Below are positions 1 to 8,892 of a stretch of 8,892 nucleotides of DNA, in pieces. The translations under genes and the position numbers were made by a program. Numbering within the stretch: the first letter of the stretch is position 1; each line of letters begins with the position of its first letter. Below the pieces are notes generated by a model. That model searched no databases and had not been told where the DNA came from. It saw nothing but the letters and a program-made list of their open reading frames with translations. The stretch is from a virus (Duplodnaviria > Heunggongvirae > Uroviricota > Caudoviricetes): the IMG/VR virus record IMGVR_UViG_2534682109_000012; one strand, given 5' to 3'.

Positions 1-508
1 TTAACCAGTTAACAATTAACGCCGGATACAGAGAATCCCCCCATAACACTGTTTTTGGTTTTAACTGTTCCGCGTGCGCTGAGCCGCATTCACCGCATCA
101 CAAAATTCACTTTTAAAAAAGGGCGGCAGAGCAGTTACGGAGTAAAACTGATACCGCCAAATGTCACCAGAATATTGATAACAGAGGGCGTTGCAGCGGG
201 GTTGTCACTTAAGCGTATGGTCAACCTGACAACCCGGTGTCCTCAACGGGGAAGGAATAACCCCGCCATACTTACCGCCGCGCCATTTCGCGGATTGCCA
301 CAACCGGAAGCGCACGGTCGAATTAAATTTAACGACGGCTCTAAGGGAGAAGGACTTCGCCGTGCACTTTCGTGTTATGCCCTGACTTTTCAGGGATATA
401 TCCTTTCAGTAAACTGTCAGTGCCGGATTCTTATCTGTGTCCGGCGCACGACCACACGTAGCAGCGTGTTGGTCTCCATTTTTAATTCAGCCCTTAATGG
501 AGGATAAA

Positions 509-694
509 ATGCCAAACAAACCATGCCCTGCCTGTAACGCTCTTTCTGGCTTTTTAGAGAAGGGCGGTTATTACATTTTTAACTGTCCAGAACATGTTGA
601 ATTTCATATATCAAAACTTGACAGTATCATTACAAAGCCAAATCAGTATCAGTCTGATTTACTGAATAAAGAGTTAAACGCCGCCCGAGATTAA
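509..694 (+). CDS. Small hypothetical protein (61 aa) with a CxxC...CxxH zinc-ribbon-like motif
   Basis: ATG at 509 preceded by GGAGG (499-503) at 5 nt spacing; ORF runs to TAA at 692-694. Translation MPNKPCPACNALSGFLEKGGYYIFNCPEHVEF... carries CPAC and CPEH pairs about 16 residues apart. The longer track ORF from 437 has no RBS and is probably an over-extension. No family recognised. Confidence 0.5.
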   Translation: MPNKPCPACNALSGFLEKGGYYIFNCPEHVEFHISKLDSIITKPNQYQSDLLNKELNAARD

Positions 695-880
695 GGGCGT
701 AGTGGCCCATTAAAAATATTGCAAAGACCAACTATTGTTGAACTGGATTAAACCAGTAATTCTCTATTGCTCTTATTGTTACCATCGGATGATTGCCGGG
801 GGTTATTTTAAGTTCGGGAGGAAAAGGCTCTCCATCAGCAGCCATCATTGAGTATGTGAAATCCGCCGACGCAGTCCCTT

Positions 881-1270
881 TCATGATAATTCCGAATTTT
901 TCAAGTAATGAGAGCAGTTCCGGTAATCCTGTGTCATCTGAATAACTTTCCTCATAGAAAGAAGCGATTGCCGCAGGAGATGACAGTTCTCGCTCTGCAA
1001 TTTTTTTGTAGTTTTCCAGAATTCTTTTTTTGAATACTTTTCCTCGACATGAAAACCCATCACCGAGGCAATCCGCTTTGCAGTTTCTTCAGTATTCTGG
1101 TTGTTTGTTACCGAAACAGAGTACAATCCGGTAAACGCATCGCGCACATTACGAGCCATATTATCAATGTATTTCTTCGTTGCAGATTCTAATTCAACTT
1201 CGTTCAGACGTTGGTGAAGTGCATGTGCTGCAATTTCCTGGATTTCTTTTAGTAAATCTTTAAATTCCAT
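881..1270 (-). CDS. Hypothetical protein (129 aa), last gene of the leftward early operon
   Basis: ATG (complement of 1268-1270) preceded on the minus strand by GGAG; it starts 11 nt after the stop of the upstream 42-aa gene. Only long ORF in this interval; no family recognised. Confidence 0.55.
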   Translation of the reverse strand: MEFKDLLKEIQEIAAHALHQRLNEVELESATKKYIDNMARNVRDAFTGLYSVSVTNNQNTEETAKRIASVMGFHVEEKYSKKEFWKTTKKLQSENCHLLRQSLLSMRKVIQMTQDYRNCSHYLKNSELS

Positions 1271-1281
1271 CTTTAACTCCG

Positions 1282-1410
1282 TTAGTCGTTAGATTTTGCC
1301 GAACTGGAAAGCGCCTGTTTAAACTCACTGAAGCTGAGAGCTTCCTCGCCTTCGGCAAGGCCTTCGAAGTATTCTTCGTAAGCCTTTTCCATGATTGTGT
1401 CGAAATCCAT
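1282..1410 (-). CDS. Small acidic hypothetical protein (42 aa); size and position resemble Rac-prophage YdaG-type small proteins
   Basis: Hand translation of the minus strand gives MDFDTIMEKAYEEYFEGLAEGEEALSFSEFKQALSSSAKSND. ATG is preceded by AGGTGA at 5 nt and lies 1 nt after the TGA of the upstream 51-aa gene (TGA-t-ATG), a tight coupling that argues for a real gene despite the small size. Not in the ORF track because it is shorter than the track cutoff. Confidence 0.45.
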   Translation of the reverse strand: MDFDTIMEKAYEEYFEGLAEGEEALSFSEFKQALSSSAKSND

Positions 1411-1411
1411 A

Positions 1412-1567
1412 TCACTCACCTGAGTTTCTTTCCAGCCAGCGACGGGCACCATTTTCGGTTTTAAACGTTTTGCTTTTGGTATACGTCATCGCGGTGAATG
1501 TACCGTCCTGGTTGGGAAACACGCCGTACACCAGAGATTCGTTGTTGCCAAGATCGATAGTATCCAT
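1412..1567 (-). CDS. Small hypothetical protein (51 aa); size and position resemble Rac-prophage YdaF-type small proteins
   Basis: Internal ATG (complement of 1565-1567) of track ORF 1412..1606, giving MDTIDLGNNESLVYGVFPNQDGTFTAMTYTKSKTFKTENGARRWLERNSGE; preceded by GAGGT at 4 nt. The track start at 1606 is a TTG without an RBS. Confidence 0.5.
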   Translation of the reverse strand: MDTIDLGNNESLVYGVFPNQDGTFTAMTYTKSKTFKTENGARRWLERNSGE

Positions 1568-1623
1568 GTTGACCTCATTTCCCCTTAACGCCGGGTAGCG
1601 GAACAAAAACCTGCTGCATAGTT

Positions 1624-1652
1624 ATTAAAGTTGAACCCTGCCGTCATGTTCA
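1624..1652 (-). promoter_or_regulatory. Candidate sigma70 promoter for the leftward small-gene operon
   Basis: On the minus strand: -35-like TGAACA (complement of 1647-1652), 17-bp spacer, -10-like TTTAAT (complement of 1624-1629), about 55 nt upstream of the 51-aa gene start. Hexamer matching only; speculative. Confidence 0.2.
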
Positions 1653-1754
1653 TACGCCTCGGGCTGGCTACTTACCCCCTGACCACTGCTTGGTAACTCG
1701 AAGTATTGCCCGGCGTTCTGTGGGGCGGGGTGGGTGGTTGGTGTATGTAATCTA

Positions 1755-1792
1755 CAATTAAAAACTGTTTTTGTGTCAACAGTTTTTAATTG
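1755..1792. promoter_or_regulatory. 38-bp perfect palindrome (15-bp arms CAATTAAAAACTGTT / AACAGTTTTTAATTG, 8-bp spacer); candidate distal operator (OL-like)
   Basis: Read directly: 1755-1769 is the exact reverse complement of 1778-1792. It shares the core AAAAACTGT / ACAGTTTTT with the palindrome at 2791-2825 in the divergent promoter region. On the minus strand the spacer and arm contain a perfect TTGACA (complement of 1774-1779). Confidence 0.5.
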
Positions 1793-1803
1793 TTGTTTTG
1801 GGC

Positions 1804-1826
1804 AAAAAAATCCCTCGAAAGAGGGA
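1804..1826 (-). terminator. Rho-independent terminator for the leftward TA operon
   Basis: TCCCTC-GAAA-GAGGGA hairpin (1811-1826, 6-bp stem, GAAA loop); on the minus strand it is followed by a run of 7 T (complement of the A-run at 1804-1810). It lies 18 nt downstream of the toxin stop codon (1845-1847). Confidence 0.55.
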
Positions 1827-1844
1827 GTATGAAAATTGTTCAAC

Positions 1845-2132
1845 TCAGATAGAGAAGGGAAATTGTCGCCGAGAATGTGTCACGCTTACAATCTCAATGC
1901 TTGAAGCAGCTACTCTGTACAGGATTATGTAGTTAGGGTGGGTCACGATCTCTCTCAATCCAGAAACCCGTTCGCTTGGTGGATATAAGTACGGATGCTC
2001 AGATAGAGGTAATACCGATGTTTCAATGCGTATTTTTAGTCTACGTGCTGCCGGTGGGTTCTCCTTGGCGATGTAAGTTATGATCTGGCGCAAATCATCG
2101 CGAGCAGACGGTAGCCATAAAATGGGTAACAT
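1845..2132 (-). CDS. parE2: ParE/RelE-family type II toxin (95 aa), third gene of the regulator-antitoxin-toxin operon
   Basis: Translation MLPILWLPSARDDLRQIITYIAKENPPAARRL...GLREIVTHPNYIILYRVAASSIEIVSVTHSRRQ has the conserved ParE pattern (N-terminal W..A..DL..I..YI, central GLRE, C-terminal NYIILYRV...IEIV.V.H.RR). Its ATG overlaps the antitoxin TAA by one base (TAATG). Symbol by analogy to the paaR2-paaA2-parE2 operon of E. coli O157:H7 prophages, recalled from memory. Confidence 0.8.
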   Translation of the reverse strand: MLPILWLPSARDDLRQIITYIAKENPPAARRLKIRIETSVLPLSEHPYLYPPSERVSGLREIVTHPNYIILYRVAASSIEIVSVTHSRRQFPFSI

Positions 2133-2323
2133 TACTCGCTCTTGTTAGTTACAGCAATTTGAGCAATAAGATTTTCCATTTCAGCCATTACCTCGTCATG
2201 TGGAATTGCGGGGCGAGTGTCTGCAAGGCTTGACGTTACTTTAGTGCGCAACCATTCGTTGTAACTGTTTTCTTGTTCGGTAGTTTCGAATTCTGAAACT
2301 ATCGGAGAAAGGGCTGTACCCAT
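2132..2323 (-). CDS. paaA2: PaaA2-like antitoxin (63 aa) of the three-component TA module
   Basis: Translation MGTALSPIVSEFETTEQENSYNEWLRTKVTSSLADTRPAIPHDEVMAEMENLIAQ matches my recollection of the PaaA2 antitoxin (63 aa). It sits immediately upstream of and overlapping the ParE gene; GAGGAG lies 7 nt before the ATG. Confidence 0.75.
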   Translation of the reverse strand: MGTALSPIVSEFETTEQENSYNEWLRTKVTSSLADTRPAIPHDEVMAEMENLIAQIAVTNKSE

Positions 2324-2350
2324 GGCATAACTCCTCTTCTTGTACTGTGG

Positions 2351-2752
2351 TCACGCCCGGCGGCTTTTTTGTGCCGCCAGCCACCTAGCAATGGTTTCTT
2401 CCATTGATTTTTTCTTGTCTTTGATTTCTTGAAGCATTTTTTCTTGGTCTTCCTCAGGAAACGCACTAAAAGCTTGGAGCAGTTCGCGTTGGCGAGGACC
2501 AATTTTCATCGTGTCAGGGGTGAAAATTTGCTCACACTCTTCAGGAGGCAATAAAAACCAATGCAATGGATGCCCTGAAACCTCAACCAGTTTATCCAAA
2601 CTTGAGGCTTTAGGTGTAGCCTTACCGCTGACCCATTGTTGAACAGTTTGTTGTGTCACACCAATTCTACGGGCAAGCTCAGCCTGGCTCCATCCAGTTT
2701 CCTGAAGAAGCTTGCTGATTCTGTACATAGATACTTCTAGGGCGCTCATCAT
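2351..2752 (-). CDS. paaR2: HTH (XRE/DicA-like) transcriptional regulator, PaaR2-like; CI-equivalent repressor of the immunity region
   Basis: Helix-turn-helix WSQAELARRIGVTQQTVQQWVSGKATP; the C-terminal LPPEE...RELLQAFSAFPEEDQEKMLQEIK segment resembles the DicA C-terminus, and there is no S24 peptidase domain. It is divergent from the Cro-like gene and first gene of the TA operon. The start is ambiguous (ATG at 2752 or 2749, neither with an SD), possibly leaderless. Confidence 0.8.
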   Translation of the reverse strand: MMSALEVSMYRISKLLQETGWSQAELARRIGVTQQTVQQWVSGKATPKASSLDKLVEVSGHPLHWFLLPPEECEQIFTPDTMKIGPRQRELLQAFSAFPEEDQEKMLQEIKDKKKSMEETIARWLAAQKSRRA

Positions 2753-2760
2753 TATTCAAT

Positions 2761-2766
2761 TTTACA
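2761..2766 (-). promoter_or_regulatory. Candidate -10 element (TAAAAT) for a leaderless regulator transcript
   Basis: On the minus strand TAAAAT lies 8 nt upstream of the regulator ATG and no SD is present, reminiscent of lambda pRM / cI. The -35 is weak. Speculative. Confidence 0.2.
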
Positions 2767-2790
2767 GGTAAATACTGTTAAAAGCATCAC

Positions 2791-2825
2791 AATAAAAAAC
2801 TGTTGATTGCATACAGTTTTTTATT
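2791..2825. promoter_or_regulatory. 35-bp perfect palindrome (13-bp arms AATAAAAAACTGT / ACAGTTTTTTATT, 9-bp spacer); candidate OR-like operator in the divergent promoter region
   Basis: Read directly: 2791-2803 is the reverse complement of 2813-2825. It lies between the divergent regulator and Cro-like genes, and an extra half-site-like AATACTGTTA sits at 2771-2780. Same core as the 1755-1792 palindrome. Confidence 0.5.
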
Positions 2826-2837
2826 GTAGGCTTTGCT

Positions 2838-2856
2838 TATAGTTTTTAGAGGAGGG
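2838..2856 (+). promoter_or_regulatory. Candidate -10 (TATAGT, 2838-2843) and RBS (GGAGGG, 2851-2856) for the rightward Cro-like operon
   Basis: TATAGT is a 5/6 match to TATAAT and GGAGGG lies 4 nt before the ATG at 2861. The -35 region would overlap the right arm of the palindrome. The short distance from -10 to RBS implies a very short leader; uncertain. Confidence 0.3.
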
Positions 2857-2860
2857 CAAA

Positions 2861-3133
2861 ATGCTAGATAGCACTCGCGAAAAAATTAGGCAGAAATACA
2901 CTCAGGCTGAAATAGGTCGTTATATGGGGGTCGCTCAACAGACTGTTTGGCAATGGTTTAGCTTTGGCGTTCCCCCAAAGCAGGTAATTCCGTTATGCCA
3001 ACTAATGAAGTGGGAAGTTACCCCGCATGAAATCCGCCCAGATATTTATCCTAACCCAACCGACGGTTTACCTGTTGGATGTAAGGTTAACACATCAAAT
3101 GCGCCGGAGTTGATTCATGAAAATCAAGCATGA
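2861..3133 (+). CDS. ydaS: Cro-like HTH DNA-binding protein, YdaS family (90 aa)
   Basis: HTH TQAEIGRYMGVAQQTVWQWFSFGVP followed by the EV..HEIRPDIY motif I associate with the YdaS family. It is divergent from the repressor with a strong RBS. Symbol by synteny and family resemblance, from memory. Confidence 0.7.
   Translation: MLDSTREKIRQKYTQAEIGRYMGVAQQTVWQWFSFGVPPKQVIPLCQLMKWEVTPHEIRPDIYPNPTDGLPVGCKVNTSNAPELIHENQA
3110..3127. promoter_or_regulatory. Perfect inverted repeat TTGATT-N6-AATCAA at the ydaS/ydaT junction; candidate YdaT (CII-like) binding site
   Basis: Read directly: TTGATTcatgaaAATCAA. It overlaps the ydaT start codon (3117-3119). I recall that YdaT of prophage CP-933P was reported to recognise a TTGATT-N6-AATCAA repeat; that recollection is unverified. 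Confidence 0.4.
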
Positions 3134-3542
3134 ACACATCCGCATGGCGATGAATGCCTGGGCGCATCCGGACGGCGAAAAAGTACCGGCTGCGAAAATT
3201 ACCAAAGCGTATTTCGAGCTGGGAATGACGTTCCCGGAACTGTATGACGACAGCCATCCGGAAGCCATGGCTCGCAATACTCAGAAAATTTTCCGCTGGG
3301 TGGAGAAAGACACTCCTGATGCGGTTAAAAAAATTCAGGCGTTGTTACCAGCGATCGAAAAAGCGATGCCGCCTCCGCTGGTGGCCCGAATGCGCAGCCA
3401 CAGTTCCGCTTATTTTCGGGAGTTGGTAGAGACGAAGGAACGGCTGGTGAAAGATATTGATGATTTCGTTGCATCAGCGATCGTTCTGTTCGATCAGATG
3501 AATCGTGGTGGCCCGGCAGGAAACACTCTGGCTGTGCATTAA
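3117..3542 (+). CDS. ydaT: YdaT-like protein (141 aa), proposed CII-functional-equivalent / toxic regulator of Rac-type prophages
   Basis: Second gene of the rightward operon; it overlaps the ydaS 3' end by 17 nt, with GGAG 8 nt upstream of the ATG. Length and position match YdaT of Rac/CP-933P; sequence family recognised from memory only. Confidence 0.7.
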   Translation: MKIKHEHIRMAMNAWAHPDGEKVPAAKITKAYFELGMTFPELYDDSHPEAMARNTQKIFRWVEKDTPDAVKKIQALLPAIEKAMPPPLVARMRSHSSAYFRELVETKERLVKDIDDFVASAIVLFDQMNRGGPAGNTLAVH

Positions 3543-3555
3543 TTGGGTAATAAAT

Positions 3556-4065
3556 ATGAGTAATGACAAAAAATTGACACTGAGCGTTTACGAAAACAGT
3601 CCGCACATCTGGCGTGGCGGTTTATCTGATGTGGAGCTGGCAGAGTGGTTGATACATAAAGCTAATGCGCTGCTCTGGCGTTTGTCAGCCAGAGAACAGC
3701 GCAAGGAAACCAGAATAAAGCTGGCTGATGCAGAAGCGTGTGCCGGGCTTATTGAGGATTATACAAATCTTGGTATTTCTTCAGCAGAGAGTGATCCCAT
3801 TCAGCCTCTGAGCAGGGAGTCAATCCAGCACGCTGGTTGTATGGCACATCTTGTAACTGCTCGTCAACATGAGGTGGGTATTGGATCACTTCCGGCGGGA
3901 TATTCGCTGATTCCAGAGCTGGTTGAAGCAAGAAAATCAGTTCAGAAAAAGAGAGATGACGCACTTCAATTATTGAGAGAGCACTATGGCGCGATACCAG
4001 AATGCGAACAGCGTCGATACCCTGAAGGTTATGAATGGATGCAGTCTCTTTTTGAAGTTCGCTAA
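3556..4065 (+). CDS. Hypothetical protein (169 aa), unknown function
   Basis: Internal ATG of track ORF 3505..4065, chosen because it starts 13 nt after the ydaT stop (the track start would overlap ydaT). The translation is protein-like (MSNDKKLTLSVYENSPHIWRGGLSDVELAEWLIHKANALLWRL...). No family recognised; weak SD. Confidence 0.5.
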   Translation: MSNDKKLTLSVYENSPHIWRGGLSDVELAEWLIHKANALLWRLSAREQRKETRIKLADAEACAGLIEDYTNLGISSAESDPIQPLSRESIQHAGCMAHLVTARQHEVGIGSLPAGYSLIPELVEARKSVQKKRDDALQLLREHYGAIPECEQRRYPEGYEWMQSLFEVR

Positions 4066-4282
4066 TCAATATGTCGAGACGAAGGTATGTTTCGGCGCGC
4101 AGCCAGGCTCTGTAATCCGGGAGCATTTCGGGGCTGTTACACCAGCGGTTTGTTGCTGCAACATTTAATACATGAGCCTGATAAAGGCTTTTCAAAAAAT
4201 ACATGTCGAACCTCCTCTGGTTCTGTCGATTGGGAACCACAGATTATATCCGGAGGAAGGTTCGGCACCAGATGAGGTAGCC

Positions 4283-5374
4283 ATGCGTGATTACGCAAAA
4301 GTTTCTCCGCGATTCTGGCTGGGAGAAACGGGGAGAGAACTTAGAAAGGCGGGTGCAGAAGCGCAAGTTGTTGCTTTTTACCTGATGACATCCCCTCACG
4401 CAAATATGCTGGGTTTGTATTACCTGCCAGTTTTATACCTTGCTCATGAAACCGGGCTTGGTCTGGAAGGGGCTTCAAAGGGGCTTAAAAGGGCTGTTGA
4501 AGCTGGTTTTTGTAGCTATGACCATGATGCAGAGATGGTCTGGGTCCATGAAATGGCAGCCTGGCAGGTTGGGGAAACGTTGAAGCCTGGCGATAACCGT
4601 TGTGCAGGTGTCAGGAATGAGTATGCATCATTACCTGAAAACGCTTTTCTGTCAGTGTTTTACGACAGATATAAAACGGATTTCCATCTGGATGTGAGGC
4701 GGAATAATAGCCGAAATTCGGTAAGGGGCTTCGAAGGGGCTTTTAAGGGGCTTCGAAGCCAAGAACAGGAACAGGAGCAGGAGAAAGAACAGGAACAGGA
4801 CAAAAACACTATGGTTCATGGCAAAAAAAACACCACGAACCAGGCAGGGGATGTTCAGACCGTCAATCCTGGTCAGCCAGCAGGCACGACACCGGAAGCC
4901 GATTCGGGCGCTGTGCAGCAGGTGATGACCGCAGGGTCGGAGCAATCACACCAACTGCAGCAGCCTGAAGCCGATTCCGCCATTCAGCGGGAAGCCGATC
5001 GGGTAGTCCCGGAAAGCACCGGGCAGTCTGTGGGACGAGTGGATTATCCGGATGTGTTCGAACAGGTCTGGCGGGAATACCCGTTGCGTGCTGGGGCAAA
5101 CCCGAAGAAATCCGCTTTCAGTGCCTGGAAGGCCAGATTGCGCGAGGGGGTGCCACCAGAGACCATGCTGGATGGTGTGAGGCGTTACGCGAGATACCTG
5201 GCGGCGACCGGGAAAGCGGGAACGGAATTTGTTCAGCGAGCGACGACGTTTTTTGGGCCGGACCGGAATTTTGAAAACCCCTGGTTGCTCCCGGTAAGCG
5301 GCACGAACAACCAGCGTTGTGTGAATCATATTTCTGAACCGGATACCGAAATTCCGCCGGGATTCAGGGGGTGA
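4283..5374 (+). CDS. Phage replication initiator / replisome-organiser-like protein (363 aa from this start)
   Basis: ATG at 4283 preceded by GAGGT at 4 nt (the track start at 4172 has no RBS but cannot be excluded). The C-terminal segment FEQVWREYPLRAGANPKKSAFSAWKARL...G resembles the F..FW..YP.K..K..A...W motif of phage replisome-organiser domains. It lies directly upstream of the DnaC-like gene, contains internal iteron-like DNA repeats, and its stop overlaps the dnaC-like RBS region. Confidence 0.65.
   Translation: MRDYAKVSPRFWLGETGRELRKAGAEAQVVAFYLMTSPHANMLGLYYLPVLYLAHETGLGLEGASKGLKRAVEAGFCSYDHDAEMVWVHEMAAWQVGETLKPGDNRCAGVRNEYASLPENAFLSVFYDRYKTDFHLDVRRNNSRNSVRGFEGAFKGLRSQEQEQEQEKEQEQDKNTMVHGKKNTTNQAGDVQTVNPGQPAGTTPEADSGAVQQVMTAGSEQSHQLQQPEADSAIQREADRVVPESTGQSVGRVDYPDVFEQVWREYPLRAGANPKKSAFSAWKARLREGVPPETMLDGVRRYARYLAATGKAGTEFVQRATTFFGPDRNFENPWLLPVSGTNNQRCVNHISEPDTEIPPGFRG
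4467..4496. repeat. Cluster A of 11-bp-phased direct repeats AAGGGGCTT (2 perfect copies plus 1 degenerate)
   Basis: Copies at 4467-4475 and 4478-4486, with a degenerate AAGGGCTG at 4489-4496; the spacing is exactly 11 bp. Lies inside the initiator gene (peptide EGASKGLKRAVEAGF). Confidence 0.6.
4723..4760. repeat. Cluster B of 11-bp-phased direct repeats AAGGGGCTT (3 perfect copies) ending in the palindrome GGCTTCGAAGCC
   Basis: Copies at 4723-4731, 4734-4742 and 4745-4753, 11 bp apart; the palindrome GGCTTCGAAGCC is at 4749-4760. Cluster B is 256 bp downstream of cluster A and inside the initiator gene (peptide RGFEGAFKGLRSQ). Candidate ori iterons. Confidence 0.6.
4763..4801 (+). repeat. 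GAACAG/GAGCAG hexanucleotide tandem repeat encoding an EQEQEQEKEQEQD acidic linker
   Basis: Read directly: GAA CAG GAA CAG GAG CAG GAG AAA GAA CAG GAA CAG GAC, in frame with the initiator gene and immediately after repeat cluster B; followed by an A-rich stretch. Confidence 0.7.
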
Positions 5375-5380
5375 TGTGGC

Positions 5381-6127
5381 ATGAAAAACATTGCGGCAGC
5401 CGGGGTTCTTGAACGTATTCGCAGACTTGCACCACAGGCGTCGGTTCCACCGTACCGGACGGTGGAGGAGTGGCGGGAATGGCAACTTGCTGAAGGACGA
5501 AAACGCAGCGAGGAGATTAACCGCCAGAATCACCAGTTGCGGGTGGAAAAAATCCTGAATCGTTCGGGCATCCAGCCTCTGCACAGCAAATGCTCGTTTG
5601 CGAATTATCAGGTGCAGAACGACGGGCAAAAATACGCGCTGAGCCAGGCCAAATCCATAGCTGACGAACTGATGACCGGGTGCACGAATTTTGTGTTCAG
5701 CGGTAAAACCGGCACCGGGAAAAATCACCTTGCAGCGGCGATGGGTAACCGGCTGATGGCGAAGGGGCGCAGCGTGATTATCGTCACCGTGTCTGATGTC
5801 ATGAGCGTGTTGCATGACAGCTACGACAACGGCAAATCCGGGGAAAAATTTTTACAGGAGCTTTGCAGTGTTGATTTGCTGGTCCTGGATGAAATAGGCG
5901 TTCAGCGGGAGACGAAAAACGAGCAGGTGGTATTACACCAGATAATTGATCGCCGGACAGCATCACTGTGCAGTGTCGGGATGTTAACAAACCTGAATCA
6001 TGCCGCAATGAGTACACTTCTTGGTGAGAGGATTATGGACCGCATGACCATGAACGGTGGTCGATGGGTGACGTTTAACTGGGATAGCTGGCGTCCAAAT
6101 GTCAGCAATATGAGGGTTGTGAAGTAA
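5381..6127 (+). CDS. DnaC-like replicative helicase loader (AAA+ ATPase, 248 aa)
   Basis: Walker A FSGKTGTGKNHLAAAMG and Walker B DLLVLDEIGVQ; long collinear similarity to E. coli DnaC as I recall it (SGKPGTGKNHLAAAI...VDLLVIDEIGVQ...MLTNSN...LGERVMDRM...FNWDSYR). Same length and position as YdaV of Rac. Confidence 0.9.
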   Translation: MKNIAAAGVLERIRRLAPQASVPPYRTVEEWREWQLAEGRKRSEEINRQNHQLRVEKILNRSGIQPLHSKCSFANYQVQNDGQKYALSQAKSIADELMTGCTNFVFSGKTGTGKNHLAAAMGNRLMAKGRSVIIVTVSDVMSVLHDSYDNGKSGEKFLQELCSVDLLVLDEIGVQRETKNEQVVLHQIIDRRTASLCSVGMLTNLNHAAMSTLLGERIMDRMTMNGGRWVTFNWDSWRPNVSNMRVVK

Positions 6128-6148
6128 TTTTGTCCGGAGGAAATTTTA

Positions 6149-6865
6149 ATGGAAACCGTATCTGACGCACTGAAAGCACTGAAAAAAGCCTCTTCACATG
6201 TGGTGGCAGCTCGCCTTGGAATTAGTCGTGAAGAGGCTGTCAACGAACTGTGGAAACTGAAACGCCGTGGAGAAGCGGATAACAAGGGGGCGATATGGTG
6301 GCTGACTCAGGCTGGTGAAAGTGAACCGGTGTCACCGGTACCGAAAGTGACGGCGCAAATGCTGACAGAGGCGATTGAACAACATGGCCCACAAACGGCG
6401 GATGAACTGGCATTGATGTTCGGAATTACCTCCCGCCGGGCGAATTCATCGCTGGCAATGGCAATCAGCAAAGGGTGTCTGATTCGCGTGAATCAGGATG
6501 GTAAATTTCGTTACTGCATACCGGGCGTTGATTTACCGGCAGAGCCGAAAGCAGCATCCGTAGCTGAAACGGAGGGTAAAGCCCTTCCTCAGCCAGCTGG
6601 TGTTGCGTTACCAGTCCAGGAAACGGCTGCACAGGAAGAAATTAAAACAGAAGCGGTGGAGGACATTGTGAAGTTGCAGCAATCGTTCACTGAAGCGAAA
6701 GCAGATGACCTGATTCTACCATCGCTGCATGTGGCTAACCGCGAGCTGCGCCGGGCGAAAAGTAATGTTCAGAAGTGGGAGCGAGTCTGTGCTGCGCTAC
6801 GGGAACTGAACAAACACAGGGATATTCTCCGGGATATTACCGCCACCAGAGAGCAGCAGCGGTGA
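6149..6865 (+). CDS. Hypothetical protein (238 aa) with two N-terminal winged-helix-like segments and a C-terminal charged helical region
   Basis: ATG at 6149 with GGAGG 8 nt upstream. Two similar segments ([25 protein letters not shown] and [37 protein letters not shown]) look like winged-helix DNA-binding motifs. Occupies the position of ydaW-type genes after the DnaC-like gene. Confidence 0.65.
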
Positions 6866-7179
6866 GTGGCTGGAAGAAGTGGCGCTGGGCTGAAATCCTG
6901 ATACTCCGGCAGTGTGCGGGAACGATGAGAGTCGAAAGCATCGGTTATCTGATTGGCCGTAGTGAGTCAGCCGTCAGGACGAAAGCGCGGGAACTGGGTA
7001 TCAGCATGATGTTACGGGGTGATTATCACCAGTCAGCCAAATGTTCACAGCGTGATATTGAGCTGGCGTGGCAACTGCATCAGCGTGGTGTACCCCGACG
7101 GGAAATTGCCGAAAAGTTTGGGATGAAGTTGGGCGCAGTGAATAACTACGTTTATTTCGACAGGAGGGTTCAGGAGTGA
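6862..7179 (+). CDS. Small two-HTH DNA-binding protein (105 aa) with GcrA-N-terminal-like motifs
   Basis: GTG start overlapping the upstream TGA (GTGA). Motifs [11 protein letters not shown]...[21 protein letters not shown] and [32 protein letters not shown] resemble the W..E..L...G.S...IA..LG.S..AV..K...LG HTH pattern of GcrA-like domains. Alternative starts are the track start at 6775 and an ATG at 6925. Confidence 0.55.
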
Positions 7180-7478
7180 GGGTGAGGGTTTATATCGCCG
7201 GTCCGATGACGGGATATGAAAATTTTAACCGCGAGGCATTTCACAAAACGGAAGAGGTGCTGAAACGGGAAGGGCATACCGTTTTAAACCCGGCAGTACT
7301 TCCGGACGGGCTGACTCAGCCACACTACATGGATATTTGCATGGCAATGCTCCGTTGCGTGGATGCGGTTTACATGCTGAAAGGCTGGCAGCAGTCGGCA
7401 GGTGCAGGGGCTGAGCTGGCACTGGAGGAGAAACCGGGCCATGCGGTGATTTTTCAGGAGGTGGGCAGTGAATATTGA
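7176..7478 (+). CDS. DUF4406-like protein (nucleoside 2-deoxyribosyltransferase-like fold), 100 aa
   Basis: N-terminal VYIAGPMTG motif, then NP, and the C-terminal D.VYML.GW..S.GA..E motif characteristic of the DUF4406 / nucleoside 2-deoxyribosyltransferase-like superfamily as I recall it. GTG start (7176, or 7182) with CAGGAGG upstream; overlaps the previous stop. Confidence 0.7.
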   Translation: MRVRVYIAGPMTGYENFNREAFHKTEEVLKREGHTVLNPAVLPDGLTQPHYMDICMAMLRCVDAVYMLKGWQQSAGAGAELALEEKPGHAVIFQEVGSEY

Positions 7479-7785
7479 CCCGGCGATAACGATTGATATG
7501 GCCCTGAACGCCGGCCTGGCACTTCTTGGTTATTTCTACATTATGTTCTGCAGCGGACGATGGCTGTCACTGTTGTTCATGAAAAAATGGAATAAACGCC
7601 GTAAGCAGGAGCAACGCCAGAAGGCAATGGATGCATTTTTCGAAGCCTTCGGAATTGACGGCATGGAACCAGGGGATCCAGCTCGCGCAATCAGCAGAGG
7701 GGGTGTAGTAATCCTTGTATATCGGAGTGAAGAGAAAAATGACGATCACAAAACAACGTGTAGAAGAAATCATATCCCGCATTGA
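7468..7785 (+). CDS. Small predicted single-pass membrane protein (105 aa)
   Basis: GTG start with CAGGAGG 6 nt upstream. N-terminal hydrophobic helix ITIDMALNAGLALLGYFYIMF followed by a basic stretch KKWNKRRKQEQRQK. The 3' end overlaps the next gene by 47 nt, so the true extent is uncertain. Confidence 0.45.
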   Translation: MNIDPAITIDMALNAGLALLGYFYIMFCSGRWLSLLFMKKWNKRRKQEQRQKAMDAFFEAFGIDGMEPGDPARAISRGGVVILVYRSEEKNDDHKTTCRRNHIPH

Positions 7786-8056
7786 AATGTATGGACATGG
7801 TGCAGGGTATATCGCAGACGAGGTTAATGATCTGGCTATACTGGCGCTGAATTTATCAAATATCGCGAACCTGAAGCGATACGAGCTTGATATGGGAGGT
7901 TGCGACTCGTGCGGTCAGGATTGTGGCGCTGATATGACTGAAGATCCTGATGGTGATTATGTCCTGTTTGATGACGTGGTTAAGTTGTTTGAATTTGATA
8001 CAACCACTCAAAAGTTAGAAATCCCGGCAAAGGAGGCAGCCAGTGGGCAAGATTGA
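7739..8056 (+). CDS. Hypothetical acidic protein (105 aa) with a GGCDSCGQDCG Cys cluster
   Basis: Internal ATG at 7739 of track ORF 7715..8056 (the track start is a TTG); GGAG/GAAGAG upstream. No family recognised. Confidence 0.5.
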   Translation: MTITKQRVEEIISRIEMYGHGAGYIADEVNDLAILALNLSNIANLKRYELDMGGCDSCGQDCGADMTEDPDGDYVLFDDVVKLFEFDTTTQKLEIPAKEAASGQD

Positions 8057-8480
8057 CTATCAGGCACTGCGTGAGGCAGCACAAAACTATCAATCGACGC
8101 TGGCGTGGTATCAGGCTACCCCGGACAGCCCAAATGCTGAACGGGATTGTGATGCGGCTCTTGCTGCGTTTAAGCGTCACATCCGTCATCGGGAAGCGGA
8201 TATTATCGCTGATTTGCTGGATGGACTGGAAGAAGCAAAATCACAACTCAACGAGCAGCGTGAGTATTACGAAGGCGTTATCTCTGATGGGAGCAAGCGT
8301 ATTGCTGAACTGGAAGCGCGGGAAGTTCAATTACCGACTCGCTACGACCTTCGATATGGACACCCGATAAATGCAGATGAGCGACATGTCATGATACCTA
8401 AAGAAAATGGCAGTTGGCTTTACCTGATTGACCTAGAACACGCATTACGCGTCGCTGGCATTCGCATCAAAGGAGAGTGA
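8043..8480 (+). CDS. Ead/Ea22-like prophage protein (145 aa), coiled-coil containing
   Basis: GTG start with AAGGAGG 7 nt upstream. The N-terminal IDYQALREAAQ... and central coiled-coil region resemble the Ea22-like family common in E. coli prophages (from memory). Overlaps the previous gene by 14 nt. Confidence 0.5.
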   Translation: MGKIDYQALREAAQNYQSTLAWYQATPDSPNAERDCDAALAAFKRHIRHREADIIADLLDGLEEAKSQLNEQREYYEGVISDGSKRIAELEAREVQLPTRYDLRYGHPINADERHVMIPKENGSWLYLIDLEHALRVAGIRIKGE

Positions 8481-8481
8481 G

Positions 8482-8673
8482 ATGAACGGACAAATATCAA
8501 TTGTTCGACCAGGAGCATGTGACGATCGCGAAATACGAATGATTATTCGTCTGGCGATGGGGAAAACAATAACTGCTCTCATTACTCCAGAAAATCTCGC
8601 ATTAGCATTAACAGGAAAGTCAGACATGCCAGTAGAGCTAAAGCTGCGAAATGTTGAGATTAAGGTGAAATAG
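8482..8673 (+). CDS. Hypothetical protein (63 aa)
   Basis: ATG at 8482 with AGGAG 6 nt upstream, 1 nt after the upstream TGA. No family recognised. Confidence 0.5.
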   Translation: MNGQISIVRPGACDDREIRMIIRLAMGKTITALITPENLALALTGKSDMPVELKLRNVEIKVK

Positions 8674-8675
8674 CT

Positions 8676-8892
8676 ATGACCACTATTACCAAAGATCGAC
8701 TGCTGACAATCCAGCATTGGCGCGAAACATACGGACCGGGTAGCAACGTTGTGCTTCCAGCAGAAGAAGCGGAAGAGCTGGCACGGATTGCGCTGGCATC
8801 ACTGGCAGCAGTATCGGATGAACGAGCAGCCTATGAATTATTTATGGAGAAGCGTTTCGGAGAATCTGTAGATCGCCGCAGAGCAAAAAATG
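8676..8892 (+). CDS. Hypothetical protein, 5' partial CDS running off the window end (at least 72 aa)
   Basis: ATG at 8676 with AAGGTGA 7 nt upstream; open frame with no stop through position 8892 (MTTITKDRLLTIQHWRETYGPGSNVVLPAEEAEELARIALASLAAV...). Absent from the ORF track because it has no stop in the window. Confidence 0.5.
   Translation, partial: MTTITKDRLLTIQHWRETYGPGSNVVLPAEEAEELARIALASLAAVSDERAAYELFMEKRFGESVDRRRAKN

Follow-up and report, generated by a model that had tools for sequence, protein, structure and literature searches.

Three small overlapping genes occupy positions 7176–8056 of the window, an 8,892-nt stretch of a caudovirus genome (IMG/VR record IMGVR_UViG_2534682109_000012), and they raise the question of whether they work together as one system. 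An earlier note, made from the sequence alone, had proposed that they form an accessory or anti-defence module. Our analysis indicates that the trio is a chance adjacency in an ordinary mosaic early operon and that, among the matches listed, it is found whole only in O157:H7 and its close relatives. The explanation that best accounts for the locus as a whole, to which we assign a probability of about 0.75, is that of three single-gene cassettes lying side by side, each exchanged singly between phages, with product roles that we infer below and not with parts in a system.

The three genes are real and belong to named families. All lie on the + strand: a DUF4406 gene (7176..7478, 100 aa), a DUF4752 gene (7468..7785, 105 aa) and a gene for an acidic protein of PHROG 3126 (7739..8056, 105 aa). 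The elements that the earlier note had described are present at the positions it gave and go beyond chance, and each of the three frames is under purifying selection (dN/dS 0.1–0.4 against diverged alleles). Hundreds of RefSeq genomes carry the same annotation of these genes, which are already catalogued as Pfam DUF4406, Pfam DUF4752 and PHROG 3126; NCBIfam had no match for any of the three proteins.

A lambdoid E. coli prophage carries the trio within its long early-right operon, which runs from the replication to the lysis genes, at a variable stretch between the DUF1627 and Ea22-like/DUF551 genes. Upstream, on the same strand, are the DUF1627 gene (6149..6865; Pfam PF07789, E=1.6e-81) and a gene for a small HTH protein of 105 aa (6862..7179; RefSeq CDS, phrog_323, E=1.8e-24); downstream, also on the + strand, are an Ead/Ea22-like gene (8043..8480; Pfam PF13935, E=2.2e-13) and a gene for a small phrog_1222 protein (8482..8673; PHROG match, RefSeq CDS). 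The stop of the HTH gene overlaps the DUF4406 start (GTGA), DUF4406 and DUF4752 overlap by 11 nt (7468–7478), DUF4752 and PHROG 3126 by 47 nt (7739–7785), the Ea22-like gene overlaps the end of the PHROG 3126 gene by 14 nt, and the phrog_1222 gene starts 1 nt past the Ea22-like stop. Overlap or abutment of this kind links each gene to the next along a row of at least eight, beginning at 6149 and continuing past 8676, so the trio's own overlaps are not special; genes of this operon are ordinarily packed this tightly. Translational coupling, which the earlier note had described for the trio, is generic to the whole operon. A promoter/terminator scan of 5300–8892 found no + strand promoter-like or convincing terminator-like sites, and the counts did not exceed those expected from shuffled sequence. 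The three products would appear only once the prophage is induced or a cell is infected, by read-through of the early-right transcript.

Small, dispensable, singly exchangeable genes are a known feature of lambdoid phages, as in the nin region of lambda and the ea region of P22. The trio shares with these regions its position (after the replication genes and before RusA/Q/lysis), equally tight packing with overlapping stops and starts, gene-by-gene mosaicism, and neighbours of the Ead/Ea22-like and Eae-like kind, whereas no gene of the trio is a named nin or ea gene among the annotations examined. In E. coli prophages no gene lies upstream of DUF4406 more constantly than DUF1627 (47/62 loci), and the recombination breakpoint of the window falls within this gene, between 6262 and 6775. 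Other prophages have DUF977 or a different DNA-binding protein where the window has the HTH gene, and the Ea22-like gene directly follows DUF4406 in prophages other than this one.

Within the trio, the three genes assort independently. At 80 species-level DUF4406 loci, DUF4752 lay within 6 kb in 3/80 and PHROG 3126 in 1/80. Even when 62 IMG/VR loci were anchored on close DUF4406 alleles (84–99% identical), DUF4752 was adjacent in 10/62 and PHROG 3126 in 3/62. From the DUF4752 side, DUF4406 was adjacent in 11 of 59 loci, a set with much near-identical sequence, and all 11 had the full gene order of the window. Among complete E. coli genomes, all three genes were present in 293 of the 1273 that hold any part of the interval; the whole-interval matches, among those listed, were 100% identical and came from O157:H7 or from an untyped strain of identical sequence. 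Every sub-combination of the three genes was found among annotated prophages: DUF4406 is followed directly by Ea22 in loci L237 and L239, an intact DUF4406 stands beside a frameshifted DUF4752 in L238, and L240 has TraR/DksA–DUF4752–PHROG 3126 without DUF4406. Stx1a phages match the window from 7455 onward only. Since the genes shuffle independently between phages, they do not make up a system. A fused DUF4406–DUF4752 ORF (P0008, 3 sequences) was judged to be a frameshift or assembly variant and was rejected as a functional linkage.

Taken singly, the DUF4406 protein is the most informative of the three. Its assignment held under HMM search (Pfam PF14359, E=2e-33, 115.1 bits against a cut-off of 22, profile positions 2–90 of 91; phrog_355, E=4e-43), and the signature that had been quoted for it, YIAGPMTG ... 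GW..S.GA..E, is present and coincides with conserved columns of the family. The window protein carries the family-conserved residues Y/F6, G9, P10, G13, N18, R19, F22, P39, P43, Y51, C55, S74, G76, A77 and E80, the sole exception being A84: this position is Glu in the window and Ala in 233 of 247 members, the set over which all residue conservation was counted. Together with a dN/dS of ~0.55 against the nearest alleles, Glu84 raises the suspicion that this particular copy may be functionally impaired.

The structural comparison confirmed that DUF4406 has, in minimal form, the fold of the nucleoside 2-deoxyribosyltransferase (NDT)/DNPH1 superfamily. Its model adopts a flavodoxin-like parallel alpha/beta fold (strands 4–8, 35–37, 64–67 and 90–93; helices 19–31, 48–59 and 75–85) that can be superposed on NDT, DNPH1 and MilB. 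The protein has four strands and stops ~7 residues past the last; the structural targets have 125–165 residues, and only 87–97 were aligned. It lacks the C-terminal segment with which each subunit of an NDT/DNPH1 dimer completes its neighbour's active site. Against the PDB, single-sequence phmmer gave spurious matches only and a 24-sequence profile did barely better; it took a profile of 36 sequences.

Marginal HMM alignments (E = 1e-3 to 2), together with spacing, place a putative active site at Tyr6, Cys55 (with Asp53 nearby), Ser74-x-Gly76 and Glu80. In the profile alignments, Glu80 falls on the catalytic Glu of GTAFE in TbNDT, GTHIE in BcmB and GTHVE in BlsM, and it is kept in 245/247 members. 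Tyr6 of YIAGP aligns with IYIAGP of TbNDT; the position is Tyr in 223/247 and Phe in 18/247. S74-A-G-A-G-A-E80 aligns with S-P-G-T-H-I/V-E of the CMP N-glycosidases BcmB and BlsM, with Ser74 kept in 246/247 and Gly76 in 245/247, while TbNDT and LmNDT have Asp at the position of Ser74. The general-acid Asp/Asn of BcmB, BlsM, TbNDT and LmNDT falls on Cys55 in four independent, marginal profile alignments. Position 55 is Cys in 202/247 members and Asp in 19/247, and Asp53, two residues before it, is conserved in 168/247. In the active-site comparison that the earlier note had suggested, Glu80, Tyr6 and Ser74 line up; at the position of the canonical Asp/Asn general acid the window protein has Cys, and the C-terminal segment is missing.

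Ser in place of Asp six residues before the Glu leaves room for a 5'-phosphate, a published specificity rule (discussed in PMC12884076). The pattern suggests placing DUF4406 in the superfamily's nucleotide (5'-phosphate) branch. Classical NDTs (EC 2.4.2.6; T. brucei 2A0K, L. leichmannii 1F8X) share with DUF4406 the fold, the N-terminal [YF]-I-A-G-P motif and the catalytic Glu, but they bind the nucleoside 5'-OH via an Asp that is Ser in DUF4406. With this Asp replaced, the name "deoxyribosyltransferase" is unsupported, and the label "nucleoside 2-deoxyribosyltransferase" is probably wrong for DUF4406. It is the classical label that PHROG 355 and many GenBank records give to these genes.

Among the closest known systems is the nucleotide-hydrolysing branch formed by DNPH1/Rcl and the CMP N-glycosidases MilB, BcmB and BlsM. 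These are proteins of 130–160 aa with a catalytic Asp and a C-terminal segment, whereas DUF4406 has 100 aa, four strands and Cys55 in place of the Asp, and lacks the segment; the sequence similarity is marginal (E = 0.2–2). A PA1492-like protein (PDB 1T1J) belongs to another Pfam family, DUF1937, and is 18% identical to DUF4406; being itself an uncharacterised structural-genomics protein, it carries no functional information. A phage precedent is DmtZ, the NDT-family dAMP hydrolase/phosphodeoxyribosyltransferase of Z-genome phages (PMC12884076), which hydrolyses a dNMP and whose triad is Tyr/Asn/Glu. DmtZ, likened here by description, is like DUF4406 a phage-encoded protein of the NDT superfamily; its action on a dNMP shows that phages use this fold for reshaping nucleotide pools. 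It differs in having ~145 aa and in being linked or fused to a Dut-like dNTPase and PurZ0, whereas DUF4406 had no conserved metabolic partner at the 80 loci.

Within the single-cassette explanation, we infer that DUF4406 is a nucleotide N-glycosidase with NDT, DNPH1 and MilB as its superfamily kin. It would bind a nucleoside 5'-phosphate via the Ser74-x-Gly76 and GPMxG loops, Glu80 would attack the N-glycosidic bond, and Cys55 would stand in for the Asp/Asn that serves as general acid in the family. Acting in this way, the enzyme could alter the nucleotide pool during lytic growth.

A Cys at the general-acid position, Tyr6 replaced by Phe in 18/247 members and the lack of a C-terminal part mean that DUF4406 might bind a nucleotide rather than cleave it. 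As a non-catalytic sponge or sensor it would have retained the binding residues of the fold and lost the chemistry, a possibility favoured by the prevalence of Cys55, the tolerance of Phe at position 6 and the truncation to four strands. The near-invariant nucleophile Glu80 and the Asp55 of 19/247 members make the pattern more enzyme-like, and we regard the non-catalytic reading as unlikely.

It is likewise unlikely that DUF4406 alone is a counter-defence enzyme whose N-glycosidic cut destroys a nucleotide signal of host immunity or a molecule derived from NAD. The Ser-x-Gly loop points instead to a simple 5'-phosphate nucleotide, and the context is generic, with genes for DNA replication, recombination and methylases. 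The neighbourhood analysis found no association with defence or anti-defence genes: the top neighbour family occurred in at most 12 of the 80 species-level loci, and the recurring neighbours were a repressor, an integrase, RusA, lysozyme, DNA methylases and NinB. As these are generic prophage neighbours only, guilt by association was rejected as a route to DUF4406 function. PADLOC-DB 2.0 defence models gave no match at E<=0.1 to the five proteins encoded in 6862–8480. The literature search found no function for DUF4406, DUF4752 or DUF1937, no functional study combining NDT with anti-defence or prophage, and no support for counter-defence by DUF4406. The anti-defence role suggested earlier is thus left with the fold as its only basis. 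In a related version, which strikes us as rather improbable, DUF4406 works alone through a variant Tyr/Cys/Glu site, and the molecule whose N-glycosidic bond it cuts is not a plain (d)NMP but, for example, a nucleotide used in immune signalling or a derivative of NAD or ADP-ribose; DUF4752 and PHROG 3126 take no part. If it were true, this very large family would be a class of enzymes, for counter-defence or pool editing, that has so far gone unrecognised.

The DUF4752 protein matches the full Pfam profile (PF15944, positions 1–84, E=7.5e-39, 132.1 bits against 27) and phrog_667. Its gene starts with GTG, 6 nt downstream of an AGGAGG, and shows dN/dS of 0.13–0.39 against diverged alleles. The hydrophobic segment and basic stretch that had been noted are both present: the most hydrophobic 19-mer (residues 11–29) scores 1.54 on the Kyte–Doolittle scale, just below the usual 1.6 threshold, and is followed by KKWNKRRKQEQRQK, both being conserved in homologues, as is the basic stretch KKWNKRRKQ on the C-terminal side of the segment. 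The protein is probably a small single-pass membrane protein, and it would sit in the inner membrane as a bitopic protein with its N terminus out and its C terminus in. Its last ~13 residues are not conserved and are read-through into the PHROG 3126 gene.

The PHROG 3126 product (phrog_3126, E=2.5e-66, positions 1–105 of 105) has no Pfam family. RefSeq and all homologues place its true start at ATG 7739 (105 aa, MTITKQR...) and contradict the upstream TTG 7715. There are 248 homologues, at least 77% identical among the 120 matches listed, and the gene shows dN/dS of 0.10–0.26 at dS>0.15. The earlier description of an acidic protein with a CDSCGQDCG motif is right as to the charge (pI 4.1) and the presence of the motif, but the motif is not conserved. 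In 15 homologues, 72–90% identical to the window protein, C62 was the only invariant Cys, with C58 replaced by Phe in 6/15 and C55 in 2/15; with only one of three Cys invariant, a metal-binding Cys cluster was rejected. The AF2 model (pLDDT 51.5) was too poor for a fold search. The product may be a small acidic cytoplasmic protein.

Might DUF4752 and PHROG 3126 be a two-gene unit, with DUF4406 as an unrelated neighbour? PHROG 3126 directly follows DUF4752 in 45/59 loci anchored on close DUF4752 relatives, so a looser association of the two is possible, although many of those loci are nearly identical in sequence; the genes also share the 47-nt overlap. That overlap, however, is read-through of the non-conserved DUF4752 tail, and at loci anchored on PHROG 3126 the gene occurs without DUF4752 in 36/65 and in reversed order in 5/65. 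PHROG 3126 is also found in ~46-kb phages of Salmonella and E. coli (genera Skatevirus and Macdonaldcampvirus), where neither DUF4406 nor DUF4752 is annotated near it. At its DUF4752 match, VT2-Sakai has DUF4752, Ea22-like and DksA-like zinc-finger genes annotated and no PHROG 3126 gene, and in phage IME10 the two genes lie ~11 kb apart. Such a unit is very unlikely.

Least credible, and highly improbable, is the single anti-defence or superinfection-exclusion module, in which a nucleotide-processing enzyme, its partner in the membrane and an acidic regulatory protein would be made in ratios fixed by translational coupling: three overlapping, uncharacterised accessory genes in an arrangement 100% conserved in O157:H7 chromosomes (among the matches listed), with 293 genomes holding all three, would fit it, but that conservation looks clonal, the genes assort independently beyond the O157:H7 group and so lack the co-conservation on which the earlier note had staked the module beforehand, a pseudogenised DUF4752 stands beside an intact DUF4406 among the annotated counter-examples, the coupling reaches five further neighbouring genes, and PADLOC gave no match.

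The remaining interest of the locus, read as three single-gene cassettes, lies in the DUF4406 family, which is large, phage-wide and inconsistently named. This phage-borne family comprises 9087 clusters at 50% identity and is spread across phages of many phyla; 521 phage records come from Arthrobacter, Vibrio, Gordonia, Mycobacterium, Pseudomonas and enterobacterial phages. Domain fusion gave no clue to its function, as no second Pfam domain was found in ten long DUF4406-containing proteins (215–358 aa). The names in the records range over deoxyribosyltransferase, CMP N-glycosidase, MazG and dCMP deaminase; the genes labelled MazG or dCMP deaminase, considered as possible fusions, encode single-domain proteins of ~122–126 aa under inconsistent names.

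In this part of the window, three consecutive genes on the + strand had been proposed, from the sequence alone, to form an accessory or anti-defence module (7176–8056). All three elements were found: a DUF4406 gene (7176–7478; Pfam E = 2e-33, 115 bits against a threshold of 22), a DUF4752 gene (7468–7785; Pfam E = 7.5e-39) and a gene for an acidic 105-aa protein (7739–8056; pI 4.1) carrying CDSCGQDCG. The last matched no Pfam family but gave a full-length match to PHROG 3126 (E = 2.5e-66), and RefSeq and all homologues agree on ATG 7739 as its true start. DUF4752 has the described basic stretch (KKWNKRRKQ) directly after a hydrophobic segment (residues 11–29, Kyte–Doolittle 1.54), and these are the best-conserved parts of its family. 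Pairwise comparison of diverged alleles gave a dN/dS of 0.1–0.4 for each gene; therefore, all three are genuine coding genes, and all are already catalogued.

The co-occurrence of the three genes was evaluated by using each in turn as the anchor. In a species-level sample of 80 loci with a DUF4406 homologue (one genome per species, 39–86% identity, many phyla), DUF4752 lay within 6 kb of DUF4406 at three loci and next to it at none, and PHROG 3126 was present at one. No family of clustered neighbouring ORFs occurred at more than 12 of the 80 loci, and the recurrent ones (repressor, integrase, RusA, antirepressor, lysozyme, DNA methyltransferases and NinB) look like generic prophage genes, judged by representative sequences. 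Among 62 usable IMG/VR loci whose DUF4406 is 84–99% identical to the window allele, the constant upstream neighbour was DUF1627 (47/62); DUF4752 adjoined DUF4406 in 10 and PHROG 3126 in 3. When DUF4752 was the anchor, DUF4406 was adjacent in 11 of 59 loci, all 11 with the full gene order of the window; with PHROG 3126 as the anchor, DUF4752 was missing in 36 of 65 loci and the order was reversed in 5. Some part of 7176–8056 was detected in 1273 complete E. coli genomes, and all three genes in 293 of them. Every sub-combination was found among annotated examples, including DUF977–DUF4406–Ea22 (locus L237), DNA-binding protein–DUF4406–Ea22 (L239), an intact DUF4406 adjoining a frameshifted DUF4752 with PHROG 3126 missing (L238), and TraR/DksA–DUF4752–PHROG 3126–Ea22 without DUF4406 (L240). 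In Stx1a phages, the match to the window begins only at 7455, the DUF4752 boundary, and in ~46-kb Salmonella and E. coli phages (Skatevirus, Macdonaldcampvirus) PHROG 3126 adjoins Eae-like genes. The genes are thus not co-conserved across prophages, and a three-gene module is not supported. As a separate observation, the PHROG 3126 proteins of temperate lambdoid or P22-like phages and of these ~46-kb phages (Salmonella virus KFS-SE2, phage ST44) are 78–86% identical, which would imply recent gene flow between the groups.

Translational coupling, which the earlier note had taken as a sign of a module, carries little weight as evidence, because the eight genes from 6149 on are all joined in this way, each stop overlapping or abutting the next start (overlaps of 4, 4, 11, 47 and 14 nt, then gaps of 1 and 2 nt, from DUF1627 to DUF551). 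A scan of 5300–8892 gave neither a promoter-like site on the + strand nor a convincing terminator. The 47-nt overlap exists because the non-conserved tail of DUF4752 reads through into the next cassette, at the conserved MTITKQRVEEII... start of the third gene; the C-terminal tail of DUF4752 in the window is this DNA in another frame. The 5' end of the third gene (~22 codons, 7739–7804; MTITKQRVEEIISRIEMYGHG) also occurs alone in other phages at 81–91% identity, and Salmonella phage ST44 (annotated locus L319, 1501–1629) has a 42-aa remnant ORF of this start after its Eae gene. This stretch looks like a conserved junction sequence for cassette swapping. A 169-aa ORF with both DUF4406 and DUF4752 Pfam domains (P0008, three member sequences) is too rare to be considered a functional fusion; most simply, an indel of 1 nt or a mistake in assembly fell within the 11-nt overlap.

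The window as a whole comes from a lambdoid E. coli prophage, of which it represents the immunity/early-right region. On the + strand, a YdaS-like gene in the Cro position (2861–3133) and a YdaT-like gene (3117–3542) are followed by a large ORF without a Pfam family (4172–5374; replication protein O in the annotation of matching phage records), an IstB/DnaC-like ATPase (5381–6127) and an unbroken run of small genes: DUF1627 (6149–6865), a 105-aa HTH protein (6862–7179), the trio, an Ead/Ea22-like protein (8043–8480), a phrog_1222 protein (8482–8673) and DUF551 (from 8676). All listed matches of 6775–8892 to chromosomes of E. coli O157:H7 are at 100% identity, at least 80% of this region is present in 287 genomes, and the O157:H7 RefSeq annotation has exactly the same genes; the prophages concerned have another immunity/replication region (RacR, DnaT-like, P). 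For positions 1–6262, one set of E. coli strains matches at 99.7% identity. As none of 5426 complete E. coli genomes holds both parts together, the window is a recombinant with its breakpoint inside DUF1627, between 6262 and 6775.

On the − strand, a full-length DicF antisense sRNA (121–172; Rfam RF00039, 76.9 bits against a gathering score of 48, E = 4e-16) lies downstream of small ORFs without a Pfam family (881–1606), which makes the left arm similar to the dicB/dicF operon known from Qin-type prophages. A ParE toxin (1845–2132; PF05016, E = 3e-17), a PaaA2 antitoxin (2132–2323; PF21217, E = 6e-19) and an HTH repressor (2351–2752) stand consecutively on the same strand, facing the YdaS-like and YdaT-like genes. 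This row (1845–2752), which we take to be paaR2-paaA2-parE2, the three-component toxin-antitoxin/prophage switch of O157:H7, is a far better defined accessory system than the trio.

The Cys cluster for which the acidic protein had been named is not conserved. C62 alone is invariant in 15 homologues (72–90% identical to the window protein), C58 being Phe in six and C55 in two, which rules out a metal site. For this protein, AlphaFold gave an unreliable model (pLDDT 51.5).

The proposed nucleoside 2-deoxyribosyltransferase (NDT)-like fold of DUF4406 was confirmed and could be refined. A confident AlphaFold model built with 24 homologues (pLDDT 88.7, pTM 0.83) showed a four-stranded alpha/beta domain, for which Foldseek retrieved from the PDB almost only NDTs, DNPH1/Rcl, MilB and BcmB (TMq up to 0.76). 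A 36-sequence profile matched T. brucei NDT best (E = 1e-3), with weaker matches to L. mexicana NDT, BcmB, 1T1J, BlsM and MilB. In the profile alignments, Glu80 corresponds to the catalytic Glu, Tyr6 to the strand-1 Tyr, Cys55 to the general-acid Asp/Asn, and Ser74 to the Ser of S-P-G-T-H-I/V-E in CMP N-glycosidases, a column in which nucleoside transferases have a 5'-OH-binding Asp. Among 247 near-full-length members, Glu80 is found in 245, Ser74 in 246 and Gly76 in 245; position 6 is Tyr in 223 and Phe in 18, position 55 is Cys in 202 and Asp in 19, and Asp53 is present in 168. The nucleophile is intact, the general-acid position is variant and the C-terminal lid is missing. Based on these alignments and counts, the family is best placed in the nucleotide-binding branch of the NDT superfamily, and DUF4406 would be a putative N-glycosidase with a 5'-phosphorylated nucleotide as substrate. 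The label "nucleoside 2-deoxyribosyltransferase" (PHROG 355, many GenBank records) is not supported, since Ser74 replaces the 5'-OH-binding Asp. Phage use of the fold on dNMPs has a precedent in DmtZ, an NDT-family dAMP hydrolase (PMC12884076).

The anti-defence reading of the trio found no support: its proteins matched no PADLOC model, no defence-related genes occurred among the DUF4406 neighbours at the 80 species-level loci, and a literature search yielded nothing in its favour. That DUF4406 alone is a counter-defence protein has a structural lead, as the NDT and TIR folds are akin and the NDT-like effector of retron Ec86 is reported to deplete adenine derivatives (PMC11482910), but with no direct support from the same three sources we consider it improbable.

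The remaining interest lies in the role of the DUF4406 family, which comprises 9087 clusters at 50% identity (E ≤ 1e-3) and occurs in 521 phage records (Arthrobacter, Vibrio, Gordonia, Mycobacterium, Pseudomonas and other phages); our literature search turned up no work on the function of DUF4406, DUF4752 or DUF1937. Its public annotation is inconsistent and unreliable, and the proteins checked are single-domain. For example, actinobacteriophage members (loci L234–L236; ~122–126 aa, single-domain) are named nucleoside deoxyribosyltransferase, CMP N-glycosidase, MazG-like pyrophosphatase or deoxycytidylate deaminase. The window copy itself has Glu at codon 84 (Ala in 233 of 247 members, Glu in 3) and Pro at codon 87 (enterobacterial consensus Leu), both in the 7425–7436 region, and its dN/dS is ~0.55 against the three nearest alleles versus 0.13–0.20 against more distant ones. 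Several genes are marked incomplete or frameshifted in the host prophage of the O157:H7 example examined, and this copy may be drifting under relaxed constraint in a decaying prophage. Judged by cluster representative sequences, DNA methyltransferase-like ORFs lie within ~3.5 kb of DUF4406 at 15 of the 80 loci at most (adenine-methylase-like cluster, 8 loci; cytosine-C5-methylase-like cluster, 7 loci), and in a Brachyspira prophage an N-6 DNA-methylase is numbered directly ahead of DUF4406 in the published gene list (PMC8845278); this proximity may simply mean that both kinds of gene sit towards the end of the early operon.
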